A DNA stretch of 64,000 nt. Origin: Mobula hypostoma. Its lineage: Eukaryota. Made by a program: the position numbers and the translations under genes. The notes under the pieces were generated by a model that was given only the letters and a program-made list of their open reading frames with translations, did no database searches and was not told the DNA's origin. The DNA lies in assembly GCF_963921235.1 (NCBI RefSeq), contig NC_086108.1, positions 2,232,001 to 2,296,000 on the forward strand. Reading direction: 5' to 3'. This document shows, in pieces, positions 7,921 to 47,372 of the stretch. How positions within the stretch are numbered: position 1 is the first letter of the stretch; each line of letters opens with the position of its first letter.

Positions 7921-7996
7921 CAGGCAGCAGTGGGTATTGAACCCAGGTCGGAGACATTGTGAAGTGTTCGGCCAACCGCTACGCTGCCTTGCTGCG
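7921..7996 (-). mobile_element. tRNA-derived SINE head (Pol III A and B boxes) capping the minisatellite
   Basis: Minus strand GGCAGCGTAGCGGTTGG (A-box-like) ... GGGTTCAATACC (B-box-like) runs directly into the monomer sequence. Confidence 0.75.
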
Positions 7997-8095
7997 TAAT
8001 CTGAATTACCTGCGATCATTAACTGAACGGTGGAATAACAGCACTGTTCCTATGTGATTCCTACTTCCCAGTTTGATTTTAAGAATTGTACAGAC

Positions 8096-8190
8096 CTGAA
8101 TTTGGGATTCTCCGAGGTGACGACGCCAACTTCTATCTCTGAAGCCTTGAAGTCCAGCGCCAGAACAGAGGACAAGCAGGTGATCGCAAG
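8096..8190 (-). CDS. psma6l: PSMA6-like exon 6 ([32 protein letters not shown])
   Basis: Acceptor ctaacag|CTT; donor AG|gtctgt; 95 nt. Confidence 0.94.
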
Positions 8191-11100
8191 CTGTTAGAAA
8201 GAGAAGGGTCAAACTTAGTGGCAGCTACAAAAGATGGCTGCTGTGCTGAGAACAAGGAACGGTTCAGGGGTTGGGGCCTGAGCTTCCTCATACAAGTCCT
8301 ATTTCGATCGAGTTATGTTTTGTAACTTCGAAACATTCATTCAAAGCAAGAGATGGGAGTATGGAACGTGGGCCTTACTTCGAGTTTACTGAAGCAAGAC
8401 ATGCACGTATCTCCTGGTAACATGATGATGTAAGCAATTAACATATTTTTTACATATAACCTGTAATTAATCATTCAAATGGACAAGAATGCTTAATCAA
8501 ACTATATGTATATATATTAATACACACACACACACACCCACACACACACATATACAGTATATAACCCAAAATATTATTGAAATATGAAATACACAACAAA
8601 TTATTATGGTAAAACAGTTCCCTGTAATCACCAGAATATAAAGGTGGGTGGGGATGGAGGAAGGGAGGGAGGCTAGCTGTAAGGTGATAGGTGAACCCAG
8701 GGACGTGGGGAAGATCAAGGGCAGGAGAAGAAAGACTGGAGAGGAGAGAGGACAACAGCAGATAGGCTTTTGGCACGTTGGCCTTCATAAATCAGAGCAC
8801 TGAATACAGGAGTTCAGATGTTATTTTGAAGGTGTATAAGATATTGGCAAGGCTTAATTTGGAATATTGTGCCACCTGTCTACAGGAAAGATATCAATAA
8901 GATTGAAAAAGCACAGAGAAAATTTACAAATATGTTACTAGGAGAAACATAGAAACATAGAAAATAGGTGCAGGAGTAGGCCATTCGGCCCTTCGAGCCT
9001 GCACCGCCATTTATTATGATCATGGCTGATTATCCAACTCAGAACCCCGCCCCAGCCTTCCCTCCATACCCCCTGACACCCGTAGCCACAAGGGCCATAT
9101 CTAACTCCCTCTTAAATATAGCCAATGAACTGGCCTCAACTGTTTCCTGTGGCAGAGAATTCCACAGATTCACCACTCTCTGTGTGAAGAAGTTTTTCCT
9201 AATCTCGGTCCTAAAAGGCTTCCCCTCTATCCTCAAACTGTGGCCCCTCGTTCTGGACTTCCCCAACATCGGGAACAATCTTCCTGCATCTAGCCTGTCC
9301 AATCCCTTTAGGATTTTATATGTTTCAATCAGATCCCCCCTCAATCTTCTAAATTCCAACGAGTACAAGCCCAGTTCATCCAGTCTTTCTTCATATGAAA
9401 GTCCTGCCATCCCAGGAATCAATCTGGTGAACCTTCTTTGTACTCCCTCTATGGCAAGGATGTCTTTCCTCAGATTAGGGGACCAAAACTGCACACAATA
9501 CTCCAGGTGTGGTCTCACCAAGGCCTTGTACAACTGCAGTAGTACCTCCCTGCTCCTGTACTCGAATCCTCTTGCTATAAATGCCAGCATACCATTCGCC
9601 TTTTTCACCGCCTGCTGTACCTGCATGCCCACTTTCAATGACTGGTGTATAATGACACCCAGGTCTCGTTGCACCTCCCCTTTTCCTAATCGGCCACCAT
9701 TCAGATAATAATCTGTTTTCCTATTTTTGCCACCAAAGTGGATAACTTCACATTTATCCACATTAAATTGCATCTGCCATGAATTTGCCCACTCACCCAA
9801 CCTATCCAAGTCACCCTGCATCCTCTTAGCATCCTCCTCACAGCTAACACTGCCACCCAGCTTCATGTCATCTGCAAACTTGGAGATGCTGCATTTAATT
9901 CCCTCATCCAAGTCATTAATATATATTGTAAACAACTGGGTCCCAGCACTGAGCCTTGCAGTACCCCACTAGTCACCGCCTGCCATTCTGAAAAGGTCCC
10001 ATTTATTCCCACTCTTTGCTTCCTGTCTGCTAACCAATTCTCCACCCACACCAATACCTTACCCCCAATACCGTGTGCTTTAAGTTTGCACACTAATCTC
10101 CTGTATGGGACCTTGTCAAAAGCCTTTTGAAAATCCAAATATACCACATCCACTGGTTCTCCCCTATCCACTCTACTAGTTACATCCTCAAAAATTCTAT
10201 GAGATTCGTCAGACATGATTTTCCTTTCACAAATCTATGCTGACTTTGTCGGATGATTTCACTGCTTTCCAAATGTGCTGTTATCACATCCTTGATAACT
10301 GACTCCAGCAGTTTCCCCACCACCGACGTTAGGCTAACCGGTCTATAATTCCCCGGTTTCTCTCTCCCTTCTTTTTTAAAAAGTGGGGTTACATTAGCCA
10401 CCCTCCAATCCTCAGGAACTAGTCCAGAATCTAACGAGTTTTGAAAAATTATCACTAATGCATCCACTATTTCTTGGGCTACTTCCTTAAGCACTCTAGG
10501 ATGCAGACCATCTGGCCCTGGGGATTTATCTGCCTTCAATCCCTTCAATTTACCTAACACCACTTCCCTACTAATGTGTATTTCGCTCAGTTCCTCCATC
10601 TCATTGGACCCTCTGTCCCCTACTATTTCTGGAAAATTATTTATGTCCTCCTTAGTGAAGACAGAACCAAAGTAATTATTCAATTGGTCTGCCATGTCCT
10701 TGCTCCCCATAATCAATTCACCCGTTTCTGTCTGCAGGGGACCTACATTTGTCTTTACCAGTCTTTTCCTTTTTACATATCTATAAAAGCTTTTACAGTC
10801 CGTTTTTATGTTCCCTGCCAGTTTTCTCTCATAATCTTTTTTCCCTTTCCTAATTAAGCCCTTTGTCCTCCTCTGCTGAACTCTGAATTTCTCCCAGTCC
10901 TCAGGTGAGCCACTTTCTCTGGCTAATTTGTATGCTTCTTCTTTGGAATTGATACTATCCCTAATTTCTCTTGTCAGCCACGGGTGCACTATCTTCCTTG
11001 ATTTATTCTTTTGCCAAACTGGGATGAACAATTGTTGTAGTTCATCCATGCAACCTTTAAATGCTTGCCATTGCATATCCACCGTCAATCCTTGAAGTGT

Positions 11101-14100
11101 CATTTGCCAGTCTATCTTAGCTAATTCACGTCTCATACCTTCAAAGTTACCCCTCTTTAAGTTCAGAACCTTTGTTTCTGAATTAACTATGTCACTCTCC
11201 ATCTTAATGAAGAATTCCACCATATTATGGTCACTCTTACCCAAGGGGCCTCTCACGACAAGATCGCTAATTAACCCTTCCTCATTGCTCAAAACCCAGT
11301 CCAGAATAGCCTGCTCTCTAGTTGGTTCCTTGACATGTTGGTTTAAAAAACCCTCCCGCATACATTCCAAGAAATCCTCTTCCTCAGCACCTTTACCAAT
11401 TTGGTTCACCCAATCTACATGTAGATTGAAGTCACCCATTATAACTGCTGTTCCTTTATTGCACACATTTCTAATTTCCTGTTTAATACCATCTCCGACC
11501 TCACTACTACTGTTAGGTGGCCTGTACACAACTCCCACCAGCGTCTTCTGCCCCTTGGTGTTACGCAGCTCTACCCATATCGATTCCACATCTTCCCGGC
11601 TTATGTCCTTCCTTTCTGTTGCGTTAATCTCTTCTTTAACCAGCAACGCCACCCCACCTCCCCTTCCTTCATGTCTATCCCTCCTGAATATTGAATATTC
11701 CTGAACGTTGAGCTCCCATCCCTGGTCACCCTGGAGCCATGTCTCTGTGATCCCAACTATATCATAATCATTAATAACAATCTGCACTTTCAATTCATCC
11801 ACCTTATTACGAAAGCTCCTTGCATTGACACACAAAGCCTTCAGGCGCTCTTTTACAACTCTCTTAGCCCTTTTACAATTATGTTGAAAAGTGGCCCTTT
11901 TTAATGCTTGCCCTGGATTTGTCGGCCTGCCACTTTTACTTTTCTCCTTAGTACTTTTTGCTTCTACCCTCACTTTACACCCCTCTGTCTCTCTGCACTG
12001 GTTCTCATCCCCCTGTTGTGAACTAACCTCCTCACGCCTAGCCTCTTTAATTTCATTCCCACCCCCCAACCATTCTAGTTTAAAGTCACCTCAGTAGCTC
12101 CCGCTAATCTCCCTGCCAGGATATTGGTCCCCCTAGGATTCAAGTGTAACCCGTCCTTTTTGTACAGGTCACGCCTGCGCCAAAAGAGGTCCCAATGATC
12201 CAAAAACTTGAATCCCTGCCCCCTGCTCCAATCCCTCAGCCACACATTTATCCTCCACCTCATCGCATTCCTACTCTCACTGTCGCGTGGCACAGGCAGT
12301 AATCCCGAGATTACTACCTTTGCGGTCGGTTGAATGGGTTTGAACTTTATCCTCTGGAGCGTCAAAGAATGAGAGGAGATTCGATAGAGGAATACAGAAT
12401 GATGAGGGGTATAGATAGGGTAAATGCAAACAGGTTTTCTCCTCTCATGTTGGGTGAGACTGGAGTTAGAGGTCATGGGTTAAGGGTGAAAGGTGAAATA
12501 TTTCAGGGGAACCTGAGGGGGAACTTCTTCACTCAGAGGAATACGTGAGTGTGAACAAGTTGCCAGTGGAAGTGATAGATCGTTTAGTTTCAAACCTTTT
12601 AAGAGGTTTAGATGGATAGGAGGGGTATGGATGGCTATGGTCCAGGTGTGGGTCGATGGGATCAGGGAGAGGTTTGGATAGGTACATGGATAGGAGGGGT
12701 ATGGAAGGCTATGGTCCAGGTGTGGGTCGATGGGATCAGGGAGAGGTTTGGATAGGTACATGGATAGGAGGGGTATGGAAGACTATGGTTCAGGTGTGGG
12801 TCGATGGGATCAGGGAGAGGTTTGGATAGGTACATGGATAGGAGGGGTGTGGATGGCTATGGTCCAGGTGTGGGTTGGTGGGATCAGGGAGAGGTTTGGA
12901 TAGGTACATGGATAGGAGGGGTATGGAAGACTATGGTTCAGGTGTGGGTCGATGGGATCAGGGAGAGGTTTGGATAGGTACATGGATAGGAGGGGTATGG
13001 AAGACTATGGTTCAGGTGTGGGTTGGTGGGATCAGGGAGAGGTTTGGATAGGTACATGGATAGGAGGGGTATGGAAGACTATGGTCTCGGTGTGGGTTGG
13101 TGGGATCAGGGAGAGGTTTGGATAGGGACATGGATAGGAGGGGTATGGAAGACTATGGTCCAGGTGTGGGTCGATGGGATCAGGGAGAGGTTTGGATAGG
13201 TACATGGATAGGAGGGGTATGGAAGACTATGGTCCAGGTGTGGGTCGATGGGATCAGGGAGAGGTTTGGATAGGTACATGGATAGGAGGGGTATGGAAGA
13301 CTATGGTCTCGGTGTGGGTCGGTGGGATTAGGGAGAGGTTTGGATAGGTACATGGATAGGAGGGGTATGGAAGACTATGGTCTCGGTGTGGTTCGGTGGG
13401 ATCAGGGAGAGGTTTGGATAGGTACATGGATAGGAGGGGTATGGAAGACTATGGTTCAGGTGTGGGTCGATGGGATCAGGGAGAGGTTTGGATAGGTACA
13501 TGATAGGAGGGGTATGGATGGCTATGGTCCAGGTGTGGGTCGATGGGATCAGGGACAGGTTTGGATAGGTACATGGATAGGAGGGGTATGGAAGACTATG
13601 GTCCAGGTGCAAGTCGATGGGACAGGGAGAATAACAGGTTGACACGGACTAGATGAGCTGAGGGACACATTTCTGTGGTGTAGTGCTCTAGTACTCCAAT
13701 CATCTTAAAGGAGGAGAGGAGGGCAGGGGTCTATTTACTGATCCCTCAGGTCCTCGTGACACAGAGGATGAACAATCGGGGTTTTCCATGGATGGAGGAA
13801 ATGAGACAGAAGCAAGCAATTTGGTCCTTCAAGTCCAATCTTCCACCTCAGCATCACATTCCTGCCCTATCACTATATCCCTTAAAGTACATCAGTGTTT
13901 GCTTTGAGTAATTCAATGCATAAGCCAGAACAGCTCCCTGTCCTAAACACCCACGTCAGGATGCTGTTCATCGACTATAGCTCAGCATTTAATACCCTAA
14001 TCCTCACAATCCTGATTGAGAAGTTGCAGAACCTGGGCCTCTGTACCTCCCTCTGTAATTGGATCCTTGACTTCCTAACCGGAAGACCACAATCTGTGTG

Positions 14101-17100
14101 GATTAGTGATAACATCTCCTCCTCGCTGACGATCAACACTGGCGCACCTCAGGGGTGTGTGCTTAACCCACTGCTCTACTCTCTGTATACACATGACTGT
14201 GTGGCTAGGCATAGCTCAAACACCATCCACAAATTTGTTGAGGATATAACCATTGTTGGTAGAATCTCAGGTGGTGACGAGAGGGCATACAGGAGGGAGA
14301 TATGCCAACTAGTGGAATGGTGCCACAGCAACAACCTGGCACTCAACGTCAGTAAGACAAAAGAGCTGATTGTGGACTTCAGGAAGGGTAAGACGAAGGA
14401 ACACATACCAATCCTCGTAGAGGGATCGGAAGTGAAGAGAGTGAGTAGTTTCAAGTTCCTGGGTGTCAAGATCTCTGAGGATCTAACCTGGTCTCAACAT
14501 ATTGATGTAGTCATAAAGAAGGCAAGACAGTGGCTATACTTCATTAGGAGTTTGAAGAGATTTGGCATGTCAACAAATACACTCAAAATCTTCTATAGTT
14601 GTACTGTGGAGAGCATTCTGACAGGCTGCATCACTGTCTGTTATGGAGGGGCTACTGCACAGGACAGAAAGAAGCTGCAGAAGGTCGTAAATCTAGTCGG
14701 CTCCATCTTGGGTACTAGCCTACAAAGTACCCAGGACATCTTCAAGGAGCAGTGTCTCAGAAAGGCAGCGTCCATTATTAAGGACCCCCAGCACCCAGGG
14801 CATGCCCTTTTCTCACTATTACCATCAGGGAGGAGGTACAGGAGCCTGAAGACACACACTCAGCGATTCAGGAACAGCTTCTTCCCCTCTGCCATCCGAT
14901 TTCTGAATGGACATTGAACCCTTGGACACTACCTCACTTTTTTTAATATATAGTATTTCTCTTTTTTGCACTACTTTTAATCAGTTCAATATACGTCAAC
15001 TTTGATTGATTTACTTGTTTATTTATTATTATTATTATTTTATTTTGTTTTTTTTTTCTTCTACATTATGTATTGAATTAAACTGCTGCCGATAAGTTAA
15101 CAAATTTCACGTCACATGCTGGTGATAATGAACTTGATTCTAATTCTCCCTGGTCCCTGAGACAGGGGGATTCCTGATGCTTGAAACATGAAACAGCTGC
15201 TGGTCACTGTCCAATTCCTGGTTATGCAACCACTGACGCCAGGCAGCCAGCCTCTGAGGAGTATTGATAATGTCTGGGGTCACCCGTCTCGTAAATTACG
15301 ACACTGCCCAGAAGAAGGCAATGGCAAACCACTTCTGTAGAAAAATTTGCCAAGAGCAATCACAGTCATGGAACGACTATAATCGCCCAAGTCATAGACA
15401 CAGCACATAACAAGTAAACAAACGATGGTGAGGTGGCCTTCATTAGACAGGAGAATGAGTTCAAGAATCGTACGGTAATGTTGCAGCTGTGTAAAACCCT
15501 GGTTCGACCACACCCAGAATATTTTGTTCAATTTCAATCACCTCATTATGGGAAGGATGTGAAAGCTTTGAGGGGAGGTGTAGTGCAGAAGGCTGCCTGG
15601 ATTTTCCAAGAACAATCAAGGTCATGCAAACGCCATGATCGCCTCCTTCATATGACACAGCACATAACAATGATGTCAGAGCACATGGCACATAATGACG
15701 ATGATGGTGAATCCATACCCATTCTTGCAAAAATCCTACATCTCCAGAAACTAACAGAAAGGACAGAGGGAAGTGTGTCCTGGAAAGAAGCTGTGTTGAA
15801 ACACAGGGTACCTCCACAGTGGCTTTGTACGTCAGGTCCGGTTTCTTTCTCAGCTTCTTCTCTAAGTAGCTGCTGGCCTCGATCTGCTTAACCCCTGCAG
15901 TAGTGGCCTTGAAGCCGCAGTAATAACCAGCGGGGTCACATTTGTATAGTTGCGGTCCGCGTTCGTCGTCGATGGCCAGAAGCATCATACCTGCAAAGCA
16001 ACAGCGAGAGAGGAGGCGGTAAGTGCTTCCCTGGAGCAATATGATAGACTCCTGACCTCACAATCCACCTCCTTACGATCTTGCTCTTTATTGTTTACGT
16101 GCACTGCACTCTCTCTGGAGTTGCTACACTTCATTCTGCATTGGTGTTGTTTCACTTTGTTCTACCTCACTGCACTGTGTACTGATCTGATCTGTATGAA
16201 CAGTATGCAAGACAAACTTTTCACTGTGTCTCCGTACATGTCCTCCAAGAGGACCACAAGCCTTATCTTAAGGTTTGGAGGTTTGTGTGCCTCAATGACC
16301 CGGAGAGCTGTGTTGGCTGAAGTCAGGGCTTTATGCTTTGGTTCCTGGTAGGGTTACCTGTGTCAAAAAGGTAGGGGCCAGACTAAGAGTGGTCCACCGG
16401 TCCTCCAGGTTCAGGGGTTTAACTCAGGGCTAACAACCCTGGGTCAAACAAAACTGTTACTGAAACAGCAATGAAGAATCCTCCTACATCTGAGGATGTC
16501 CAAGGACAGAGAGAGATGGAGGTCCTTAGCGTAGGGACGTAACTAACAATAATGAGCCAATTCCAAAGCAAGTTTCAACATTGGTTGATGATTTATAAGC
16601 AAGGTTTGTTTACTGGCGAACTGCACAGATGGGACTAGCAGAACTTAAGTATGCACATGACTCATACGAAATAGAATGCTTGCTGGAAATACTCAGCTCA
16701 AGATGCAGCTATAAAGATGGCCAGATGATGGTTTTTAATTTGGAGTTTGAGGAGATTTGATGTGTCACCTGAAACACTTGAAAATTTCTGTGGGTGTACT
16801 GTGGAGAGTGTTCTGACTGGCTGCATCACTGTCTGGTGTCTGGTATGGGGGGTGAGGTGCTACTACACAGGTTCAGTGGATGTCGTGTATATGGATTTCA
16901 GCAAGGCATTTGATAAGGTTCTCCATGCAAGGCTTATTGAGAAAGTAAGGAGGCATGGGATCCAAGGGGACATTGCTTTGTGGATCCAGAACTGGCTTGC
17001 CCACAGAAGGCAAAGAGTGGTTGTAGACAGGACATATTCTTCATGGAGGTTGGTGACCAGTGGTGTGCCTCAGGGATCTGTTCTAGGACGCCTACTCTTT

Positions 17101-20100: not shown

Positions 20101-23100
20101 TCTGATGAAACCCAACAGCATGACTGGCCGCAATGCTTCACTACCAGATGGACTCAACGCCTTCTATGCCCACTTTGAAAGGGAGAACACAACTACAGGT
20201 GTGAAGATCCCTGCTGCACCTGATGACCCTGTGATCTCAGTCTCAGAGGCCGATATTAGACTGTGAACTCTCGCAAGGCAGAAGGTCCCAATGGGGTACC
20301 TGGTAAGGCTCTGAAAACCTGTGCTAACCAACTAACAGGAGTATTCAAGGGCATTTTCAACCTCTCACTGCTATGGGTGGAAGTTCTCACTTGCTTCAAA
20401 AAGGCAACAATTATACCAGTGCCTAAGAAGAATAATATGAGTTGCCTTAATGACTATCACCCAGTAGCACTGACATCGACAGTGATGAAATGCTTTGAGA
20501 AGTTGGTCATGACTAGACTGAACTCCTGCCTCAGCAAGGACCTGGACCCACTGCAATTTGCCTATTGTCACAATAGGTCAACGGCAGACACAATCTCAAT
20601 GGCTCTCCACACAGATTTAGACCACCTGGACAACACAAACACCTACGTCAGGATGCTGTTCATTGACTATAGCTCAGCATTTAATACCATCATTTCCACA
20701 ATCCTAATTGAGAAGTTGCAGAACCTGGGCCTCTGTACCTCCCTCTGCAATTGGATTCTTGACTTCCTAACTGGAAGACCACAGTCTGTGTGGATTGGTG
20801 ATAACATCTCCTCCTCGCTGACGATCAACACTGGCGCACCTCAGGGGTGTGTGCTTAGCCCACTGCTCTACTCTCTCTATACCCATGACTGTGTGGCTAG
20901 GCATAGCTCAAACACTATCTACAAATATGCAGATTATAAAACCATTGTTGGTAGAATCTCAGGTGGTGATGAGAGGGTGTACGAGAGTGAGATATGCCAA
21001 CTAGTGGAGTGGTGTCACAGCAACAACCTGGCACTCAACGTCAGTAAGACGAAAGAGCTGATTGTGGACTTCAGGAAGGGTAAGATGAAGGAACACATAC
21101 CAATCCTCATAGAGGGATCAGAAGTGGAGAGAGTGAGCAGTTTCAAGTTCCTGGGTGTCAAGATCTCTGAGGATCTAACCTGGTCCCAACATATCGATGT
21201 AGTCATAAAGAAGGCAAGACAGCGGCTGTACTTTATTAGGAGTTTGAAGAGATTTGGCATGTCAACAAATACCCTCAAAAACTTCTATAATTGTACCGTG
21301 GAGAGCATTCTGACAGGCTGCATCATGTCTGGTATGGAGGGGCTACTGCACAGGACAGAAAGAAGCTGCAGATGGTTGTAAAACTAGTCAGCTCCATCTT
21401 GGGTACTGGCCAACAAAGTACCCAGGACATCACTAGGGAGCGGTGTCTCAGAAAGGCAGCGTCCATTATTAAGGACCTCCAGCACCCTGGGCTGCCCTTT
21501 TCTCACTGTTACCATCAGGTAGGAGGTACAGAAGCCTGAAATCACACACTCAGTGATTCAGAAACAGCTTCTTCCCCTCTGCCATCCAATTCCTAAATGG
21601 ACATTGAATCTTTGGACAGTACCTCACTTTTTTAATATACAGTATTTCTTTTTTTTGCACATTTTTGTTTTAATCTATTCAATATACATAATTGTTTTAC
21701 TTGTTTATTTATTATTATTTTATTTTATTTATTATTATTTTTTTCTCTCTGCTAGATTTTGTATTGCTGCTGCTAAGTTAACAAATTTCACGTCACATGG
21801 CGGTGATAATAAACTGATTCTGATTCTGAAAATTTGAGCTTTTTGGCCATCAGACTAAATGCTATGTTTGGTGTAGCCAGACACCACACATCATCAAAAA
21901 CACACCATCCCTACCGTGAAGCATGGTGGGGGCTGCATCATGCTGTGGGGATGCTTCACTGCTGCAGGCCCTGGAAGGCTTGTGACGGTAGAGGGTAAAA
22001 TGAATACAGCAGATCCTGCAGGAAAACCTGATGCAGTCTGCAAGAGAACTGCATTGTGGGAGAAGGTTTGTTTTCCAGCAAGACAATGACCTCAAGCAAA
22101 AACCAAAGCTACACAGGAATGGCTTAAAAACAAAAAGTTAATGTCATGGAGTGGCCAAGTCAGGTCCAGACCTCAATTTAATTAAAAGTTTGTGGCTGGA
22201 TTTCAAAAGGCCTGTTCACTCATGATCCCTAGGCAGACTGACAGAACTTGAGCAGTTTTGTAAAGAATGGGGAAAAATTGCAGTGTCCAGATGTGCGAAG
22301 CTGATAGAGACCTGACCACACAGACTCAAGGCTGTAATTGCTGCCAAAGGTGCATCTGCTAAATACTGACTTGAAGGGGGTGAACACTTATGCAGAACAT
22401 GATGGGCTGAACAGCCTATGTTGTATGATTTCCCTTTAACCTTGGAATATTTCTTGAAGCCTGCTGCTAAGGACTATTCTCACCATTCTATCAAAGAGCC
22501 TTTTGCTGGAGGGTCTCTGTGGCATCTGTCGGGGGAGAGGAACTGTCGATATTTTGGATTGAAACTCATTCACTAGGTTCAGAAACGTCAACAATTCCTT
22601 TCTCCCCCACAGACACTGCTCGGCCCTCTGAGACCTCCAGAAGATTGTGAGCTGCTCCAGATTCCACCATCTTGTGTCTCCGTTATCAAACAGCATTTCA
22701 AATCCTGACTGTTGACAGGGATTAAAGATAGGAATTATTTGTCACAGGTATATTGAAACATACAGTGAAATGTGATGTCAGCAGCAATGACCAACACAGT
22801 CTGAGGATGTGCTGGGAGCAGTCTGCTGGCACCAACACAGCACGCCCACAACCCACTAACCCCAAATCAAACATCTTTGGAACGTGGGAGGAGACCAGAA
22901 CACCCGGAGGAAACCCACGAGGTCACCAGGAGAACGTACGAACGCCTTACTGGCAGTTGCGGGAATTGAACCTGGGTTGTTGGCTTTGTTATAGTTTTAT
23001 GCTACAGTGCCCCCAGCCCCCCTCCCCCCTCAGCAAGCATTCTCAGATTAAAGTCGAAATGTACTCACAACAGCCTAAGGGTCTCATTTCGGCATTCTGA

Positions 23101-26100
23101 GTATAGACCTGTGAGATGTCGGCCATTCTCTTGCACAGCATGTCCACTGGGATATCATATCCATACTTATACTTACAGTTGGCAGCCTCGTGACGAGATC
23201 TCTGTACCTGTGACCGGCAGTCCGCTGGTTACGTTGGGAGGGTAGGGGGCATAGAAGTGTCAGAGAGAAAAGTGTGTTAAACACAGTTGCCATGGCTACG
23301 AAAGAACGGGCCCACAAGCAGGCGGCAAAAAGGACTAACCTAGCATGCCTGTCATGGTGCAGCCGATCTTGTCCGTTAGGCGGTGCATGTTGGTCACGGT
23401 GCTGGCATCAATAAGTTTATCCTGAAATACAACAAGCATTGGCAAGCTGACGTCCGATGTTGACAGTCTGAATCTCCAGCAGAAAGAGCTGGAGTCACTC
23501 ACTGGGTCAGAGTCCAAGATTAATTTATTCCCAAAGTAGTGCGAACACTTGAATCGAGTATGATGTGGGAGATCTGTGATCATGGACATGGCTAATAACT
23601 GTTTTTGAACCTGGTGGTGTGGGACCCGAGGCTCCTGTACCTCCTGCCCGCTGGTAGCAGTAGAGGATGGCATGGGCTGAATGGTGGGCCTCTGTGATGA
23701 TGATAACCAATGGAAGAAGTGACCTATTGTAAGATCTTGAGTAGAAGATATTGTGTAAGACTGTTACTGACATGGTAGGTGCATCTGCTTGTATTCAGGG
23801 AATGGCAAAGATAGACTGAGATAATCTAATGTGAGGAGAATCTTCTTGAATAGCTTCCTTGTTTTTTTCTGATTTGCCCAGAGCATGTCAGAAACCCAAC
23901 TAATTGATGCAGGGACTTGGCCCAAAACTGTTTATTCCTCTCTATAGATGCTGCCTGACCTGCTGAGTTCCTCCAGCATTTTGTATGTGTTGCTCCTGAT
24001 TTCCAGCATCTGCAGAATCTCTTGCGTAATTGATGCTGTAATTGTTTTGCCATTATGTAATCAAAATGATTTTCCTCCAGCTGAATGTGATATTAATAAC
24101 TCGTGCTGTTTTAAAGATGCGCTGAAAATGAACTAGGCACTCCCAAGTATGAATCATCACAGAGTCCCTGACAAACGCCCCTCTAAAGGGACAGAGGGTG
24201 CTGTCAAGTCCTGCACAATGGTCCTTTTGGACTGTCATGGGTGGAAGGTGGGGAGGGGGACAGTGGAATTTAGATCACAGGGTCCTGTTACTCAGCACCG
24301 GATAGTCCAGGGGCATCTTGGAGAGGAAACAAAAAACTACTCGGCAGGTCAGGCAGCGTCTGTACAAGGTAGAATGCCGTCAGCATTTCTGGTCAGTGGC
24401 CTTCCAGCAGAACAGGAAAAGTGAGACAACGCATTAGTTTTAATTTGCAGAAAGGGTGGGGGTAGGAAGGTTAGGACAAAGGGAATGGCTCTGATAGGGT
24501 GTGGACAGGGTTGCCATGACGACGTGTTGTCTATGAAGCCATCTGATTGGCAGATTAATGAGGACCACTGAGGGTATCCTGTGTTTTGCCCGTGGAGTAT
24601 TGGACCTCTTTGTGGCGAGGTGGCGCCAGTGACCAACGCCCAGCGCCAAAATCCTGTAGACAGCTCATGGAGCAGCTAGATATTCTTCTTTTAAATATAT
24701 TTCTTACCCTGAACTGAGACCAACTGCAGCCTGTAAATTCCATCTTGAGAATGTATTTTTGAGCCGACTAAACGATTTGGCGCTATTGCCAAATCTTCAG
24801 GGATTCGGCGAGGTTGAGAAAGGTTGTGCAGGGACAGTCATCAATTCCTGACAGCGGAATGCGAACCCGCGGTCGGCTCCAGTACTCCACTCCGATTAAA
24901 GCATCGAGCAAGATTAAAATCGAAGAGGACCCGAGTGGAAAACGAACGGGTGTTCAGCGCCGTTCTGCCTGCGTTTCACCGGTCTCCCTTTCCCTGTTGC
25001 CACTGGAAGGCGCAGGAGTCTTGGGTCGCACGCTGCAAAGTTCGATCGCCTCGGCGCCTCACGGCTGTGGACTCATTTTCAAGGGACTCTGCAGTCCGAT
25101 GACCAACGTCCTCAATGCTGGACGCGCTCCACGGCTGTAGGCTCACTCTGCTGTTCATGCTCCACGTGTTTTTCTTTACTCCTTTTTACGCCATCTTGCG
25201 CGATTTGATCACGGCGTCTCAGCGCGGAACTGGCTCTGCACACACGCTGTAGCCTGCAGCCGCTGACACAGTGCTGAACTCAGAGGCTGTGACTCTTGGA
25301 CCGTTTCAGGGACCGGGCAGGGTGATGATGTTTAATTGTCACTGTGTTATTTACTTGGTTTTTGCCAAGTGTTTAAATGGGTATGTGGTGTTTTCTTTAA
25401 TCGGGTCCCATGGTGTTTCTATGTTTCTTAGCTATCCATGGGAATATCAGGGTTGGATTCTATATACATAATTAAATAATAAGAGTAGTTTGAATCTTTG
25501 ACCTCTGTGGTAACGAGGCCAAAACGTTGTCCGTTTACTCTTCTCCGTAGATGCTGCCTGACCTGCTGAGTTCCTCCAGCATTTTGGGTGTGTTACTCTG
25601 GATTTCCAGCATCTATTGAATCTTCTTATTCTGGCTTCGTCACCCTTCCTGTACATCCTTGGGTTCCTCCAGCATTTTAGATCATACAGTATAGGAGCAG
25701 AATTAGACCATTTGGCCTAAAATCTATTCTACATTTCATCATGGCTGATCCATTTCTCTCTCAGCCCCATTCTCCTGCCTTCTCCCTGTATCCCTTCATG
25801 CCCTGACTAACCCCTGCCTTAAATATACCCAATGACTTGGCCTCCACAGACACCTGTGCAATAAATTCCACAGATTCACCACTCTCCGGCTAAAGAAATT
25901 CACCACACCTCCATCCTAAATGGACGTCCTTTTATTTTGAGGCTGTATCCTCTGGTCCTAGACTCCCCCACCACAGGAAATCTCCTCTCCACATCCACGT
26001 TAAGGCCTTTCAGCATTTGATAGGTTTCATTGAAGAACCCCCCCCACCCCCCAATTCTTCTGAACTCCAAGCAGTACAGACCCACAGCCATCAGACTTTC

Positions 26101-32100: not shown

Positions 32101-35100
32101 GAAAGGTGCTCTGACGTCAGCCTCCGAGACTGAGATCACAGGGTCACCTGATGGCGCAGGGATTCGCATAGCTGTAGTTTTATTCTCCCTTTCGAAGTGT
32201 GTGTGAAAGGCGTTGCGCTCACCCGCGAGTGGGGCATCACTGCCATTCATGATGTTCAGACCTGCCAGAGCCGATGTGCATCCTATTCTGTCTCTCACCT
32301 CAACGGGACTTGTTTACTTGCTCTTAAAACAATGCCAGCTGTTTGCCCGGAGGGGGGTTGTGTGAAGGGGTGTTGCTGACAGGGCATGGACACCCCTGAA
32401 CCCTATAGAACATAGAACGTAGAATAGTACAGGCCCTTTGGCCCACATTGTTGTGCTGACCCTCAAATCCTGCCTCCCATAAATTCCTCCATGTACCTGT
32501 CGAGTAGTCTCTTAAACTTCACTAGTGTATCTGCCTCCACCACTGACTCAGGCAGTGCATTCCACACACCAACCACTCTCTGAGTAAAAAACCTTCCTCT
32601 AATATCCCCCTTGAACTTCCCACCCCTTACCTTAAAGCCATGTCCTCTTGTATTGAGCAGTGGTGCCCTGGGGAAGAGGAGCTGGCTGTCCACTCTATCT
32701 ATTCCTCTTAATATCTTGTATGTATACCTCGATCATGTCTCCTCTCATCCTCCTTCTCTCCAAAGAGTAAAGCCCTAGCTCCCTTAATCTCTGATCATAA
32801 TGCATACTTTCTAAACCAGGCAGCATCCTGGTAAATCTCCTCTGTACCCTTTCCAATACTTCCACATCCTTCCTATAGTGAGGTGACCAGAACTGGACAC
32901 AGTACTCCAAGTGTGGCCTAACCACAGTTTTATAGAGTTGCATCATTACATCGCAACTCTTAAACTCAATCCCTCGACTTATGAAACCTAACACCCCATA
33001 AGCTTTCTTCACTACCCTATCCACCTGTGAGGCAACTTTCAGGAATCTGTGGACATGTACCCCCAGATCCCTCTGCTCCTCCACACTACCAAGTATCCTG
33101 CCATTTACTTTGTACTCCGCCTTGGAGTTTGTCCTTCCAAAGTGTTCCACCTCACACTTCTCCGGGTTGAACTCCATCTGCCACTTCTCAGCCCACTTCT
33201 GCATCCTATCAATGTCTCTCCGCAATATTTGACAATCCTCTACACTATCTACAACACCACCAACTTTTGTGTCATCTGCAAACTTGCCAACCCACCCTTC
33301 TACCCCAACATCCAGGTCATTAATAAAAATAACGAAAAGTAGAGGTCCCAGAACAGATCCTTGTGGGACACCACTAGTCACAACCCTCCAATCCGAATGT
33401 ACTCCCTCCACCACCACCCTCTGCCTTCTGCAGGCAAGCCAATTCTGAATCCACCTGGCCAAACTTCCCTGGATCCCATGCCTTCTAACTTTCTGAATAA
33501 GCCTACCGTGTGGAACCTTGTCAAATGCCTTACTAAAATCCATGTAGATCACATCCACTGCACTACCCTCATCTATATACCTGGTCACCTCCTCAAAGAA
33601 CTCTATCAGGCTTGTTAGACACGATCTGCCCTTCACAAAGCCACACTGACTGTCCCTGATCAGACCATGATTCTCTAAATGCCCAGAGATCCTATCTCTA
33701 AGAATCTTTTCCAACAGCTTTCCCACCACAGAGTATAAGCACAGTAAGGAGCTAAATGTATTTTCTTAACATTTATATTAACATGAAGCAGATAGTTTCT
33801 CGAAACACGCCCAGTCAGGGGGAGCGCCACTTAAGTGGAAGGTGATGTTGTGTGAGTAGATCTAAATCCAAGTGAGAGCCGACACCATTGGCGGAAGGGG
33901 AAGCGGGGAAATGGGGAAACGAGGGGGGGAACAGGCAAACAAGGGGCAAGGAGACCTCCACTCACCACCACTTTCTTCTGCGTCACAACGACAACTGAGT
34001 CCTTCCCTCTGATGGCCACTGTGGTGAGACCACTCTGGTTGATGGCTTTGAAGGCATATTCTGAAAAGCACAGAAAGGAACGTGAGGTGCCCCCGGTGTG
34101 GACTCACTTGCCAGAGTCAGTACGCTTTGGATTGCAGATTTTTGGGTAAGTCCGCGGGGCAGTGCTGGGAATATGTGGTACCACTGGTGATGGTGCACTT
34201 TTGGATGAGATATTACTGAGTCCCTGTTCTCTGTCTCACATTAACACCAATGGTTCTTTGGTTCTAGTGATAAAAAAGCAGCAAGTGGCCTCGGGGCAGT
34301 ACATAACCCTTCAATCAAAGTCAAAGGACACTGCCAATGCTGTTAATCCAGAGCACACACATCGAACGCCGGTCAGGAGGCATCTGTGGAGGGAAATAAG
34401 CAGTTGACATTTCGGGCTGAGACCCTTCAACAGGACAGGACGGGAGAGAAGGGAGAAGAAGCCAGAATAGGGAAGTGGGGGAGGGGAAGGAGAACAAGCT
34501 GGCAGGTGATAGGTGAGGAACAAGTTGGGTGAGGGGAATGAAGTGAGAAGCTGGGAGGTGATAGGTGAGGGACAAGTTGGGTGAGGGGAATGAAGTGAGA
34601 AGCTGGGAGGTGATAGGTGAGGGACAAGTTGGGTGAGGGGAATGAAGTGAGAAGCTGGGAGGTGATAGGTGAGGGACAGGTTGGGTGAGGGGAATGAAGT
34701 GAGAAGCTGGGAGGTGATAGGTGAGGGACAAGTTGGGTGAGGGGAATGAAGTGAGAAGCTGGGAGGTGATAGGTGAGGGACAAGTTGTGTGAGGGGAATG
34801 AAGTGAGAAGCTGGGAGGTGATAGGTGAGGGACAGGTTGGGTGAGGGGAATGAAGTGAGAAGCTGGGAGGTGATAGGTGAGGGACAAGTTGGGTGAGGGG
34901 AATGAAGTGAGAAGCTGGGAGGTGATAGGTGAGGGAAAAGTTGGGTGAGGGGAATGAAGTGAGAAGCTGGGAGGTGATAGGCGAGGGACAAGTTGGGTGA
35001 GGGGAATGAAGTGAGAAGCTGGGAGGTGATAGGCGAGGGACAAGTTGGGTGAGGGGAATGAAGTGAGAAGCTGGGAGGTGATAGGCGGGGGACAAGTTGG

Positions 35101-47100: not shown

Positions 47101-47327
47101 CACCATCTGATTGGACAGCCGCGCTGTCAATAGTGAATGCGGCCGCTGATGGACGTGGCGGACAGAAGACGGCGGTAAAGGACGGCGGAGACAGGCGCGA
47201 TTTCGGAGCAGAATCGCGGACAGAAGAATCGCATTTGCAAATATGACTGACCTACTTGGTAGAGCCTCCCTTCGGGAGAGAAGATGGTGATGTGACGGTC
47301 GAAGCCGGCGCTCGAACCGCGGCTCAT
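8096..47327 (-). CDS. psma6l: Proteasome 20S subunit alpha type-6-like gene (alpha-1 paralogue), spliced coding exons 1-6; final exon not in window
   Basis: Six exons of 76/95/82/156/179/95 nt join in frame, all with GT-AG boundaries, matching the PSMA6 exon layout. Protein: [227 protein letters not shown](R). PSMA6 family is certain; the psma6l assignment is inferred from divergence. Confidence 0.93.
8522..8550. repeat. (CA)n microsatellite
   Basis: acacacacacacacccacacacacaca. Confidence 0.85.
8943..12328 (-). mobile_element. Young CR1 LINE: 3' part of ORF1 esterase plus ORF2 (APE endonuclease + RT) with two frameshifts, nested in an older + strand CR1 fragment (~8765-8942 / 12329-12610)
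   Basis: [29 protein letters not shown] and FADD motifs; DGLHLN esterase motif; frameshifts near 10185 and 9940. Confidence 0.93.
12604..13625 (+). repeat. 74-bp minisatellite (~13-14 copies) derived from the CR1 ORF2 3' end
   Basis: Unit GGTTTGGATAGGTACATGGATAGGAGGGGTATGGAAGACTATGGTCCAGGTGTGGGTCGATGGGATCAGGGAGA; period 12671->12745; colinear with the flanking CR1. Confidence 0.9.
13945..15145 (+). mobile_element. Rex1/Babar-like LINE, 5'-truncated
   Basis: [22 protein letters not shown] and KKARQWLYF motifs; GATTCT-type tail. Confidence 0.85.
15205..15415 (+). mobile_element. RTE-tail-type SINE/LINE 3' fragment
   Basis: GAAGGCAATGGCAAACCACT resembles RTE/BovB-derived 3' ends (recognised from memory). 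Confidence 0.45.
15812..15990 (-). CDS. psma6l: PSMA6-like exon 5 ([60 protein letters not shown])
   Basis: Acceptor ttgcag|GTATG; donor GAG|gtaccc; 179 nt; [11 protein letters not shown] motif. Confidence 0.95.
16255..16545 (+). mobile_element. RTE (Rex3/Expander-like) 5' UTR-derived fragment
   Basis: CAATGACCCGGAGAGCTGTGTTG...CCTGGTAGGGTTACC...GGTCCTCCAGGTT...GGGCTAACAACCC resembles RTE 5' UTRs. Confidence 0.45.
16870..17705 (+). mobile_element. Internally deleted CR1 RT fragment nested in a Rex-like 3' fragment (~16735-16870 / 17706-18030)
   Basis: [19 protein letters not shown] and FADD motifs; TTCTATG tail. Confidence 0.8.
18305..19556 (+). mobile_element. Rex1/Babar-like LINE, 5'-truncated and frameshifted, inside Tc1
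   Basis: [31 protein letters not shown]-type tail. Confidence 0.85.
20113..21829 (+). mobile_element. Rex1/Babar-like LINE inserted into the Tc1 WSDETK catalytic segment
   Basis: 372-aa RT ORF; (GATTCT)n tail; host resumes at AAATTTGAGC. Confidence 0.88.
22730..23010 (-). mobile_element. Degenerate tRNA-derived SINE related to the 1-7996 minisatellite source
   Basis: GAAACCCACGAGGTCACCAGGAGAACGTAC core, GGAATTGAACC B-box complement, and a tail similar to 1140-1310. Confidence 0.7.
23069..23224 (-). CDS. psma6l: PSMA6-like exon 4 ([52 protein letters not shown])
   Basis: Acceptor aaccag|CGGAC; donor T|gtgagt; 156 nt; reading frame absent from the ORF track, translated by hand. Confidence 0.95.
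23340..23421 (-). CDS. psma6l: PSMA6-like exon 3 ([27 protein letters not shown])
   Basis: Acceptor tttcag|GAT; donor G|gttagt; 82 nt. Confidence 0.95.
23983..24590 (+). repeat. ~600 bp local direct duplication, copy A
   Basis: Near-identical to 27660-28266 (offset 3677). Confidence 0.92.
25685..27590 (-). mobile_element. Old CR1 ORF2 fragment
   Basis: [11 protein letters not shown] and [11 protein letters not shown] motifs; multiple disruptions. Confidence 0.85.
27660..28266 (+). repeat. ~600 bp local direct duplication, copy B
   Basis: Near-identical to 23983-24590. Confidence 0.92.
29575..30170 (-). mobile_element. Degenerate Rex1/Babar 3' fragment
   Basis: AATCAGAATCAGG tail complement; FKFLG-like segment. 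Confidence 0.65.
30570..31485 (+). mobile_element. Two degenerate CR1 3'-end fragments (~30570-30985 and ~31140-31485)
   Basis: SRTRG / RRNFF segments and the CR1 3' UTR motif. Confidence 0.7.
31490..32310 (-). mobile_element. Degenerate Rex1/Babar RT fragment
   Basis: [12 protein letters not shown] and ASGPNGV motifs. Confidence 0.75.
32405..33732 (-). mobile_element. 5'-truncated CR1 LINE (RT)
   Basis: 344-aa RT ORF with [25 protein letters not shown] tail complement. Confidence 0.9.
33966..34060 (-). CDS. psma6l: PSMA6-like exon 2 ([32 protein letters not shown])
   Basis: Acceptor ttttcag|AATATGCC; donor GTG|gtgagt; 95 nt. Confidence 0.95.
34330..35340 (-). repeat. Penelope-terminal-repeat-derived element containing a 52-bp minisatellite (~14 copies, ~34495-35275)
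   Basis: Unit ATAGGTGAGGGACAAGTTGGGTGAGGGGAATGAAGTGAGAAGCTGGGAGGTG; degenerate hammerhead core at ~34401-34438. Confidence 0.85.
35975..38642 (+). mobile_element. Decayed CR1 LINE (ORF1 end, APE, RT)
   Basis: VAITETW, SDHN and [11 protein letters not shown] motifs; TTCTATG tail. Confidence 0.88.
40105..40530 (+). repeat. 57-bp minisatellite (~7 copies) derived from a Penelope-type terminal repeat
   Basis: Unit CTGACCTGCTGAGTTCCTCCAGCATTTTGTGTGTGTTACTCTGACCATCGACACTGT. Confidence 0.9.
40535..41455 (+). mobile_element. Internal CR1 ORF2 fragment
   Basis: [13 protein letters not shown] and MDFSKAFD motifs. Confidence 0.85.
41460..42475 (-). mobile_element. Decayed CR1 ORF1 (SGNH esterase) fragment
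   Basis: VVVHIGTN and DGLYLN motifs. Confidence 0.8.
42480..43682 (+). mobile_element. Decayed CR1 RT 3' fragment
   Basis: [11 protein letters not shown] motif; CR1 3' UTR. Confidence 0.82.
44233..45247 (+). mobile_element. Solo LTR (1015 bp) with internal short tandem repeats, inserted into a Rex-like fragment (~43700-45390)
   Basis: TGTCA...TAACA termini; 5-bp TSD CATCG/CATCA; host sequence resumes colinearly; strand inferred. Confidence 0.8.
45595..46638 (+). mobile_element. Rex1/Babar-like LINE, 5'-truncated
   Basis: [13 protein letters not shown]; (AATCT)n tail; same family as 18305-19556. Confidence 0.87.
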
Positions 47328-47350
47328 CTTTACAGCGAAAACGGAGAAAT
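47040..47350. promoter_or_regulatory. CpG-rich promoter/exon 1 region with GC box and two CCAAT boxes in the start of intron 1
   Basis: Dense CpG; CCCCGCCC at 47059-47066; ATTGG at 47079 and 47110 (31 bp apart). Confidence 0.5.
47252..47327 (-). CDS. psma6l: PSMA6-like coding exon 1 ([25 protein letters not shown])
   Basis: ATG at 47327; alpha-subunit N-terminal signature; donor G|GTCAGT at 47251. Confidence 0.96.
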
Positions 47351-47353
47351 GTG

Positions 47354-47372
47354 CACTTTTACTTTCGGTTTC
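47354..47372 (-). promoter_or_regulatory. ISRE / IRF-binding element just upstream of the PSMA6-like ATG
   Basis: Minus strand GAAACCGAAAGTAAAAGTG fits GAAANNGAAA plus a third IRF-like half-site; core lies 34-45 bp from the start codon. Confidence 0.7.

Follow-up and report, generated by a model that had tools for sequence, protein, structure and literature searches.

The immunoproteasome of the textbooks differs from the standard proteasome in its beta subunits and its PA28 cap and in nothing else. PSMB8 and PSMB9 are linked to the MHC, although such linkage is not strictly required of immunoproteasome subunits. That a paralogue can fill a position of the alpha ring is known from PSMA8 (alpha-4s), the testis-specific alpha variant of mammals. 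In fishes, the available text of two reports gives zebrafish psma6l an expression signature in common with psmb8a, psmb9a, psmb12, psmb13a, psme1 and psme2 (PMC7423392, PMC9751191). According to the available portions of two further reports, one or two of the five PSMA6 copies of Atlantic salmon rise with IFN-gamma, at log2 values of 2.8–3.75 (PMC7573153, PMC12234341); these PSMA6 copies are at most putative members of psma6l. A 2026 survey of teleosts, in the part available, reports of psma6 duplicates only that their tissue abundance is copy-specific, and assigns the fish duplicates to the teleost-specific genome duplication (PMC13664112). A literature search of article texts found no functional or expression study of the elasmobranch gene, here called PSMA6L.

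The window is a stretch of 64,000 nucleotides from Mobula hypostoma (contig NC_086108.1, positions 2,232,001 to 2,296,000). It holds most of the ray's psma6l orthologue, which is the genome's second gene for alpha-1, a position in the outer ring of the 20S proteasome. The features of the gene are as follows, with positions counted within the window unless a contig is named.

47361..47372, minus strand: ISRE/IRF-E-like 12-mer GAAACCGAAAGT, 34–45 nt before the ATG
47328..47367, minus strand: 5' UTR, as far as the RNA contigs extend; run X3 gives the longest of them, which stops at 47367
47252..47327, minus strand: exon 1, with the ATG at 47327; codes for residues 1–25 and one further base
33966..34060, minus strand: exon 2; codes for residues 26–57, the last of which are KKVV
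23340..23421, minus strand: exon 3; codes for residues 58–84, with 9 of 27 residues changed, H68N among them
23069..23224, minus strand: exon 4; codes for residues 85–136 and carries Y96H and W101C
15812..15990, minus strand: exon 5; codes for residues 137–196, with 18 of 60 residues changed, W189L among them
8096..8190, minus strand: exon 6; codes for residues 197–228, its 3' end being a GT donor and not a stop
1..8095, minus strand: a portion of the 15.0-kb intron 6, with 53/156-bp satellite arrays and LINE fragments
C50:2225107-2225050 (L003:3107-3050), minus strand, outside the window: exon 7, with 18 codons and a stop, intact

The six exons in the window had been placed correctly in a preliminary description of this DNA; each lies between an AG acceptor and a GT donor, and together they give 228 codons without a stop. 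That description had read them as an intact six-exon reading frame. The frame is indeed intact, but the gene has seven exons. A search of window positions 1–8095 gave no match to exon 7 scoring 30 or more, and the exon was found, undisrupted, in the flank, 6.9 kb beyond the window start and across intron 6. About 200 nt of 3' UTR lie between the stop codon and an AATAAA, likewise outside the window. The whole coding sequence is 741 nt long and codes for 246 amino acids, and all six introns are GT-AG.

PSMA6L is a 20S proteasome subunit of the alpha type, as indicated by Pfam matches above the cut-off to PF10584 on exon 1 (E 9.4e-10) and to PF00227 on exon 4 (E 7.2e-10) and exon 5 (E 9.2e-9). 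Among the seven alpha types it is nearest to PSMA6. The best matches of exon 5 to solved structures are human PSMA6 chains (E 8.1e-24), followed by yeast alpha-1 at 4.7e-11 and other human alpha types at 5.5e-4 or worse, and the named matches are all PSMA6 or PSMA6-like.

A separate canonical PSMA6, for which the preliminary description had proposed a search, is present in the same genome on another contig (C1:64039332-64054058). Its 7 exons code for 246 amino acids, and its protein matches turtle PSMA6 at 93.5% identity. The two genes have the fold family and the seven-exon layout of alpha-1 ('iota'; human structures 1IRU, 5VFO) in common, with exon lengths of 76, 95, 82, 156, 179, 95 and 58 nt in both, whereas PSMA6L differs from the C1 copy in its contig, in its IkB neighbour and in its AT-rich promoter with an ISRE. 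The two proteins are 78.9% identical, 52 of 246 residues being different.

A tree of 65 rows, built under a site-heterogeneous model, indicated the origin of the gene. The window protein falls into a clade of 41 rows with support of 100/98, outside which canonical gnathostome PSMA6 lies, and its earlier assignment to the psma6l lineage is thereby borne out. The clade comprises the elasmobranch "alpha type-6-like" proteins (Hypanus, Narcine, Scyliorhinus, Carcharodon and others) and the psma6l of ray-finned fishes, all of 246 amino acids, together with copies from lungfish, turtle and tuatara. Teleosts had been named as keepers of psma6l; they do keep it, but the statement was too narrow, as bichirs, sturgeon, bowfin, gar, lungfish, turtles and tuatara keep it as well. 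With the annotated 'alpha type-6-like' protein of Hypanus sabinus the window protein shares 92.7% of its residues, but with teleost psma6l only 73–77%; the elasmobranch copies carry fixed changes of their own. On the canonical side, the cartilaginous fishes are represented by the C1 model and Callorhinchus only, because no canonical PSMA6 of other elasmobranchs was named among the results of one protein search, probably as a result of clustering with other vertebrates at 90% identity.

A recent duplication within cartilaginous fishes, or a pseudogene, with likeness to psma6l produced by convergence or long-branch attraction, is very improbable. The AU test rejects a duplication confined to chondrichthyans (p-AU 0.006, delta lnL 41.5). 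H68N occurs in every one of the clade's three groups, and W189L in the elasmobranchs and ray-finned fishes among them; the two paralogues have different IkB neighbours, and the reading frame is intact and its RNA spliced. What can be said for so young an origin is that fast-evolving rows partly define the clade and that the base of the tree is somewhat unstable: lamprey and hagfish PSMA6 adjoin the PSMA6L clade in the free tree (95/82), but not robustly, for constraining all gnathostome rows together costs only 2.5 lnL units (p-AU 0.43). We conclude that PSMA6L and canonical PSMA6 split before cartilaginous and bony vertebrates diverged, and that PSMA6L is an old lineage of jawed vertebrates which is absent from mammals. 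This corrects the dating of psma6 duplicates to the teleost-specific duplication, as given in the part of the survey available (PMC13664112). Automatic annotation has already recorded the gene in the genomes of several sharks and rays, and the teleost orthologue is named, in zebrafish as 'proteasome 20S subunit alpha 6, like'. The locus as such is therefore no discovery; the new point is the age of the lineage, the kind of gene being annotated already.

The neighbourhood of the two paralogues points to an origin of PSMA6L within a duplicated block that included the neighbouring IkB gene, because both have a convergent neighbour of the IkB family. An IkB-beta-like gene lies about 70 kb from PSMA6L, and an IkB-alpha-like gene, whose degron reads DSGIGS, about 35–40 kb from canonical PSMA6; this evidence concerns paralogy within the one genome. 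A DSGxxS search did not find the N-terminal degron exon of the IkB-like gene on C50. In 230 kb of PSMA6L flanks we scanned 273 unique ORFs of 60 amino acids or more and obtained two meaningful Pfam matches, both ankyrin, so that the IkB-family gene alone was recognised; short exons escape such a scan, and further neighbours may therefore exist.

The changed residues give the next line of evidence. The preliminary description had counted about 48 differences in 228 residues against human PSMA6, and exactly 48 are obtained against another mammalian PSMA6, that of beaver (P0087), the full comparison giving 56 differences over 246 residues (77.2% identity). Exon 1, which had been called unchanged, has zero differences from the beaver protein. 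The four substitutions singled out then are likewise all present against the genome's own canonical copy: P57V (in KKVV), TNMHRL at residues 67–72, Y96H and W101C. W101C is found in this genome alone and is no lineage trait, since the other elasmobranch rows retain W (8/8). Further changes fixed in elasmobranch PSMA6L are S39T, C47S, L61I, T84L, G142A and S207A. The changes are concentrated in exons 3, 5 and 7, parts predicted to face the adjacent alpha subunits and the regulator-binding surface. In comparison with the C1 copy residues 1–34 are identical, and exon 1, with the N-terminal gate and the alpha-subunit signature, has 0 differences.

Such changes might reflect relaxed constraint instead of specialisation, in a redundant, fast-drifting duplicate or one with a role outside the 20S ring. 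We regard this as improbable, though there is evidence in its favour. PSMA6L evolves several times faster than the canonical gene: mean identity between batoid and shark copies is 85.7% (15 pairs, exon 1 invariant), against 93.5% for canonical PSMA6 across the deeper split between ray and turtle. W101C is a radical change at a near-invariant position in this genome, and the introns are swollen by repeats, the gene spanning 54 kb compared with 14.7 kb for its canonical paralogue; within the window, satellite arrays of intron 6 alternate with two near-identical LINE reverse-transcriptase fragments. Against drift stand the unchanged residues 1–34, the preservation of frame, length and all splice sites over the 41 rows of elasmobranchs, ray-finned fishes, lungfish and reptiles, and a transcript that is present and correctly spliced. 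The mean of 85.7% between batoids and sharks, with exon 1 invariant, can equally be read as constraint.

PSMA6L is transcribed and spliced. RNA contigs from three of four runs (X2, X3 and X4) join exon 1 to exon 2 as modelled: they leave exon 1 precisely at 47252 and continue with the initial 30 bases of exon 2 (window 34031-34060). Exon 1 is covered in these runs and intron depth is zero, and in run X1 exon 1 is uncovered in the stretch examined. The runs are unlabelled, both as RNA and as to treatment; that they contain RNA shows in their spliced contigs, and they were read for the presence and splicing of contigs, not for depth. If the runs with PSMA6L transcripts came from untreated tissue, the expression seen would be basal.

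An ISRE or a GAS element at the promoter is expected of an interferon-stimulated gene, and PSMA6L carries GAAACCGAAAGT at −45 to −34 from the ATG. The element overlaps the 5' end of the longest RNA contig; since the contig begins within it, the transcription start site may coincide with the motif or lie just upstream of it. On the 3' side of the motif AAAAGT comes first and then, as far as about 47335, a pair of GAAA half-sites in inverted orientation. Within the 64 kb the pattern GAAANNGAAASY occurs 3 times against 0.50 expected, a number reached by 2 of 100 shuffles, and the two other matches lie in introns of the same window. The 10-mer core GAAACCGAAA recurs before this genome's viperin gene, the single control used, as the sole ISRE core within 952 bp of upstream sequence. 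The 5.4 kb preceding canonical PSMA6 hold no ISRE core, and the promoter of that gene is rich in GC and carries an Sp1 box. The ISRE of the preliminary description is thus a real motif, placed at the 5' end of the transcript, with a core shared with viperin and absent from the canonical promoter.

With an interferon-type motif at the start of its gene, PSMA6L may be an immune-specific part of the proteasome. We put at about even the chance that it is an alternative alpha-1 subunit, driven by the ISRE, of an immune-type proteasome. PSMA6L protein would occupy the alpha-1 position of some 20S particles, with the gate-forming N-terminus kept and the differences concentrated in exons 3, 5 and 7. 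The ISRE/IRF element at the start site would drive its transcription, and PSMA6L would therefore rise alongside the interferon-inducible beta subunits and PA28. The outcome would be an immune-type proteasome that exchanges an alpha subunit as well. Both interferon induction and incorporation into immunoproteasomes are inferred here, and in this species the putative link to interferon comes from one motif of 12 nt.

PSMA6L resembles PSMB8, PSMB9 and PSMB10, and PSMB12 and PSMB13 of fishes, in being a paralogue, of jawed-vertebrate age, of a constitutive 20S subunit. The interferon-type promoter element proposed for it would be a further likeness, and co-expression in teleosts is reported in the available text of three sources (PMC9751191, PMC7573153, PMC12234341). 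Unlike PSMB8/9/10, it is a non-catalytic alpha subunit and is unlinked to other proteasome genes, and its exchange into particles is putative. Of 33 PF00227 matches in the genome, the two on C50 are exons of PSMA6L itself, which shows the lack of linkage to immunoproteasome beta genes; nor did the genome-wide PF00227 matches and the 230 kb of flanks reveal linkage to the MHC or to inducible proteasome genes.

PSMA6L could instead be a true alternative alpha-1 subunit that is constitutive or tissue-restricted, like PSMA8 of the testis, with the ISRE-like motif fortuitous or of minor effect. This is possible, if somewhat doubtful. It accords with transcripts in three of the four runs with no stimulation on record, with a single motif into which the longest RNA contig reaches at its 5' end, with a contig C50 free of linked proteasome or MHC genes, and with the tissue abundance described in the part of the teleost survey available (PMC13664112). 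The position of the motif, the identity of its core with the viperin ISRE and its absence from the canonical PSMA6 promoter speak against it, as do the co-expression with immunoproteasome genes and the IFN-gamma induction of the teleost reports, as far as their available text goes (PMC7423392, PMC9751191, PMC7573153, PMC12234341). PSMA6L differs from PSMA8 in ring position and tissue logic, and the origin of PSMA8 is much younger.

Should PSMA6L be regulated together with the immune beta subunits, a possibility hinted at by the zebrafish and salmon data, most vertebrate classes would exchange a fourth subunit, and the mammalian system would be secondarily simplified. More speculatively, the earliest immunoproteasome of jawed vertebrates may have swapped a subunit of the alpha ring in addition to three catalytic beta subunits. 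On this tentative proposal, PSMA6L would have come from the same early genome duplications as the inducible beta subunits and PA28, would have been under ISRE control since before sharks and bony fishes split, and would tune assembly or regulator docking at alpha-1; it would later have been lost in mammals, birds and perhaps amphibians and kept in rays, sharks, ray-finned fishes, lungfish, turtles and tuatara. A GAS-type palindrome lies at −215 of canonical PSMA6, which may thus respond to interferon too.

PSMA6L, the minus-strand gene of the window (G000:C50:2232001-2296000, from a genome of 3.48 Gb), is built from seven exons, and all of its introns start with GT and end with AG.

Exons of PSMA6L (window coordinates unless prefixed)
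47327-47252, minus strand, exon 1, the ATG exon
34060-33966, minus strand, exon 2
23421-23340, minus strand, exon 3
23224-23069, minus strand, exon 4
15990-15812, minus strand, exon 5
8190-8096, minus strand, exon 6, ending at a donor site with no stop
C50:2225107-2225050 (L003:3107-3050 in the flanking locus, outside the window), minus strand, exon 7, 18 residues and TAA with a good acceptor

The preliminary description had reported an intact six-exon ORF of the PSMA6 type. These six exons were confirmed, but the gene has a seventh, which is intact in the flank; window positions 1-8095 hold no candidate for a last exon, and an AATAAA lies about 200 nt 3' of exon 7. The joined exons give a CDS of 741 nt encoding 246 aa with no internal stops, and their lengths (76, 95, 82, 156, 179, 95 and 58 nt) equal those of canonical PSMA6, the ordinary alpha-1 gene of the same genome. 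The exon translations contain the Pfam alpha-subunit N-terminal signature and the proteasome domain, and human PSMA6 chains are the best solved-structure relatives of exon 5 (E 8e-24). The gene extends over 54 kb because its introns are full of satellite arrays and of LINE ORFs for reverse transcriptase, endonuclease and esterase.

A search with exon 5 of PSMA6L led to the canonical gene on contig C1 (69% identity), so the window gene is not the sole PSMA6 of the genome. Canonical PSMA6 is a compact gene of seven exons and 246 aa at C1:64039332-64054058, and its product is 93.5% identical to the turtle protein, 90.2% to cyprinid psma6a, 85.8% to the amphioxus protein and 82.9% to the sea-anemone protein. 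PSMA6L shares 78.9% identity with canonical PSMA6 and 73.6-77.2% with the turtle, cyprinid psma6a, amphioxus and sea-anemone proteins; it is therefore more divergent from canonical PSMA6 (78.9%) than a cnidarian PSMA6 is (82.9%). In some fish records (P0129, P0216), a PRORP domain (mitochondrial RNase P protein 3, PF16953) is fused to PSMA6. These are probably run-together annotations of adjacent genes, which hints at the neighbor of canonical PSMA6.

Eight elasmobranchs (Hypanus, Narcine, Pristiophorus, Carcharodon, Cetorhinus, Hemiscyllium, Scyliorhinus and Heptranchias) yielded close relatives in the protein searches under the name 'proteasome subunit alpha type-6-like'; the Heptranchias protein is partial, and the other seven, all full-length, have 85-93% identity to the query or the window protein. 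A tree of 65 rows was calculated with IQ-TREE under LG+C20 from 63 near-full-length proteins, chosen from about 225 returned, and two spliced models, with named proteins preferred and fragments and most unnamed rows omitted. PSMA6L falls in a clade of 41 rows (support 100/98) that comprises nine elasmobranch 'like' proteins including the window gene, 28 ray-finned rows (two bichirs, sturgeon, bowfin, gar psma6l and 23 teleosts, seven of them named psma6l) and four sarcopterygian rows, namely lungfish (SAR_Protopterus_L), tuatara (SAR_Sphenodon) and two turtles (SAR_Gopherus_L, SAR_Chelydra). The canonical gnathostome group (15 rows, 94/93) holds the C1 gene, Callorhinchus, coelacanth, frog, turtle, two rodents and eight teleosts, of which seven are named psma6a and one is an unnamed trout protein. 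The assignment of the window gene to the psma6l lineage, already proposed in the preliminary description, is well supported by this phylogeny, in which PSMA6L does not cluster with canonical PSMA6. The accompanying remark that teleosts keep an extra psma6l had the lineage right, but the 41-row clade is older and wider than was assumed.

Forcing the elasmobranch 'like' proteins together with the two canonical chondrichthyan rows cost 41.5 lnL (p-AU 0.006), and a duplication confined to chondrichthyans was rejected. That PSMA6L should be a lineage-specific duplicate or a pseudogene is highly improbable. On this phylogenetic evidence, the PSMA6/PSMA6L duplication is older than the split between cartilaginous and bony vertebrates. 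The PSMA6 proteins of lamprey and hagfish adjoin the PSMA6L clade (95/82) and not canonical gnathostome PSMA6, but an alternative tree that keeps all gnathostome rows together is not rejected (p-AU 0.43). The tuatara, turtle and lungfish members of the clade show that PSMA6L has persisted in some tetrapods, a survival of which no mention was found in the portions of the literature covered by the search. A 2026 survey, in the part available, puts the psma6 duplicates of seabream and seabass down to a teleost-specific duplication and calls its own tree uncertain (PMC13664112). Such an origin is contradicted by the topology of our 65-row tree for the psma6a/psma6l split.

No other host gene was detected in the window. 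A whole-genome scan with PF00227 gave 33 exon matches on 13 contigs, and those on C50 are PSMA6L exons 4 and 5 only, so there is no linkage to other proteasome genes. Two pairs of proteasome-domain exon matches have identical scores on two contigs, C91:57424812-57436047 and C100:177010-222312 (42.2 and 42.1 bits; 47.1 and 37.2 bits), and may represent duplicated or alternative-haplotype proteasome beta genes.

The flanks (230 kb) contain 1,335 ORFs of at least 60 aa, 273 of which were kept as unique and not of low complexity; two of the 273 were ankyrin exons. They led to an IkB-family gene, and a genome search with its first exon gave four non-self matches (E < 1e-5), one of them at C1:64092912-64093181 (minus strand), 39 kb past the last exon of canonical PSMA6.

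IkB-family genes beside the two PSMA6 paralogues
C50:2147922-2148230, 2151796-2151972 and 2154302-2154562 (L014/L015), plus strand, three ankyrin ORFs and an acidic tail, near PSMA6L
C1:64092223-64094391 (L030), minus strand, IkB-alpha-like gene with a DSGIGS degron exon and ankyrin exons

The C50 gene is convergent with the 3' end of PSMA6L at a distance of about 70 kb, and among natural solved structures it is matched best by IkB-beta, with collinear alignments over residues 44-99 and 190-271. The C1 gene, best matched by IkB-alpha among natural solved structures, is convergent with canonical PSMA6 about 35-40 kb downstream. The two PSMA6 paralogues are thus each paired with a convergent IkB paralogue, a hallmark of block or whole-genome duplication that argues against PSMA6L having arisen as a retrocopy or a tandem copy. 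We take human PSMA6 and NFKBIA to be convergent neighbors at 14q13 and NFKBIB to lie at 19q13; on that arrangement, the NFKBIB region is where PSMA6L was lost in mammals. Contig C50 has another IkB-like gene about 170 kb beyond the first one (C50:1979585-1984316, plus strand, L031).

PSMA6L differs from beaver PSMA6 (P0087) at 56 of 246 residues. Exactly 48 of these changes are in residues 1-228, the number that had been estimated by hand, and exon 1, earlier described as unchanged, is identical both to beaver PSMA6 and to the canonical gene of the ray itself. Against the latter, 52 of 246 residues differ (0, 6, 9, 5, 18, 7 and 7 in exons 1-7), among them all of the substitutions singled out earlier (P57V, the 67-72 block, Y96H and W101C), and the changes are concentrated near residue 68 and in 139-151, 173-197 and 229-242. 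Codon 101 (window 23172-23174, minus strand) is TGT for Cys, where nearly all PSMA6 proteins have Trp; the window gene is the only one of nine elasmobranch PSMA6L rows with this substitution, which may be fixed, polymorphic or the product of an error in the assembly. Lineage-wide substitutions were counted at positions where canonical and outgroup rows agree, across three groups of the PSMA6L clade. H68N is present in 100% of the elasmobranch, ray-finned and sarcopterygian groups, and E74D/P, W189L, Q193 (variable), T197L and D236E also depart from the canonical residue in all three; W189L is fixed in the elasmobranch and ray-finned groups but not among the sarcopterygians. Over 15 pairs, PSMA6L of batoids and sharks averages 85.7% identity, whereas canonical PSMA6 of this ray is 90-93.5% identical to that of bony vertebrates; PSMA6L therefore evolves faster and yet is clearly constrained. 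A drifting or otherwise employed copy is rather unlikely.

Four RNA runs of one study contain the PSMA6L 3' UTR, and their contigs were aligned to window positions 46500-48300. Contigs of three runs (X2, X3 and X4) cover exon 1, starting exactly at 47252 and reaching 47329, 47367 and 47321, respectively, and depth is zero in the intron stretch 46683-47231. Each runs 177 letters past exon 1, off the aligned stretch. This number is the sum of the lengths of exons 2 and 3, and the match, checked over the first 30 letters, is to window 34031-34060, the start of exon 2. As the contigs join exon 1 to exon 2 without intron depth, PSMA6L is transcribed and spliced as modelled.

The proximal ISRE announced in the preliminary description is present.

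Interferon-type element of PSMA6L
47372-47361, minus strand (gene strand), ISRE-like element GAAACCGAAAGT, 45 to 34 nt before the ATG

After it come AAAAGT and two GAAA half-sites in inverted orientation. The longest RNA contig, which ends at 47367, begins inside the element, and the element therefore lies at the start site and not well upstream. The pattern GAAANNGAAASY has three matches in the window, the other two intronic, where 0.50 would be expected, and a count of three was attained in 2 of 100 shuffles; at these rates, the chance that a match falls within 100 nt of any one start site is about 0.001-0.005, ignoring the free choice of what to report in the first reading. No GAAANNGAAA core is found in the 5.4 kb upstream of canonical PSMA6, the sole one in 10 kb being 5.4 kb away. 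The proximal 200 bp of canonical PSMA6 have 60% GC and an Sp1 box, compared with 35.5% GC in PSMA6L, and the canonical promoter has a GAS-type palindrome, TTCCCAGAA, at L006:9117-9125, 215 nt from the ATG; chance alone would give about 0.3 sites of this type in 1.1 kb. The viperin gene of the same genome (C2:64784070-64797588) was used as a positive control; it has exactly one ISRE core in the 952 bp before the first in-frame Met, 205 nt upstream, and this is the same 10-mer, GAAACCGAAA, as in PSMA6L. With viperin as the one control gene, it is credible that this form of the motif works as an ISRE in the ray. PSMA6L might otherwise be a constitutive or tissue-specific variant, a possible but somewhat doubtful alternative; the RNA samples are unlabelled, and contig depth cannot rank expression.

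From these sequence features, an interferon and immunoproteasome reading appears plausible. PSMA6L would serve as the alpha-1 subunit of some 20S particles and would be raised via the ISRE together with the inducible beta subunits and PA28, a proposal to which we give about an even chance. Normal ring membership would be expected because the gate and first helix are unchanged. We assume that residue 68 is the counterpart of the archaeal alpha-subunit pocket lysine that receives activator C-termini and that the later alpha-subunit helices are presumably on the outer, regulator-facing side; on these assumptions, the changes would be expected to affect how PA28 or 19S docks, or the contacts made during assembly.

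Genes of this kind already have a name in teleosts and automatic annotations in elasmobranchs; no paper on PSMA6L in cartilaginous fishes was found in the literature searched. In the parts of the papers available, zebrafish psma6l is grouped with psme1, psme2, psmb8a and psmb9a as LPS-responsive proteasome genes (PMC9751191), and psma6l, psmb12 and psmb13a have an expression signature in common with psmb8a/9a, with zebrafish-specific proteasomes suggested by the authors (PMC7423392). One of five PSMA6 copies is reported up by log2 2.9 with IFN-gamma in Atlantic salmon SHK-1 cells (PMC7573153), and two salmon copies are up with IFN-gamma and ISAV, which was "surprising" to the authors (PMC12234341); these copies may or may not belong to the psma6l lineage.

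The repeats in and around PSMA6L are as follows.

Repeats of the window
1-1053, 2426-4079 and 5452-7923, satellite arrays with a 53/156-bp unit, last PSMA6L intron
1265-2515 and 4291-5541, near-identical LINE reverse-transcriptase fragments, last PSMA6L intron
10180-12090, minus strand, LINE endonuclease and RT start ORF, 636 aa
12612-13630, tandem array, period 74 bp, PSMA6L intron
34496-35197, tandem array, period 52 bp, PSMA6L intron
40107-40530, tandem array, period 57 bp, PSMA6L intron
58484-61009, minus strand, LINE reverse transcriptase ORF, 841 aa
61333-62148, minus strand, LINE GDSL-esterase-type ORF, 271 aa
62559-64000, tandem array, period 26/77 bp, upstream of PSMA6L

The four tandem arrays (periods 74, 52, 57 and 26/77 bp) have 81-97% matches, and some LINE copies with long open frames may be young. 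The satellite arrays alternate with the two LINE fragments in a higher-order tandem duplication of about 3 kb (window 1-7923).
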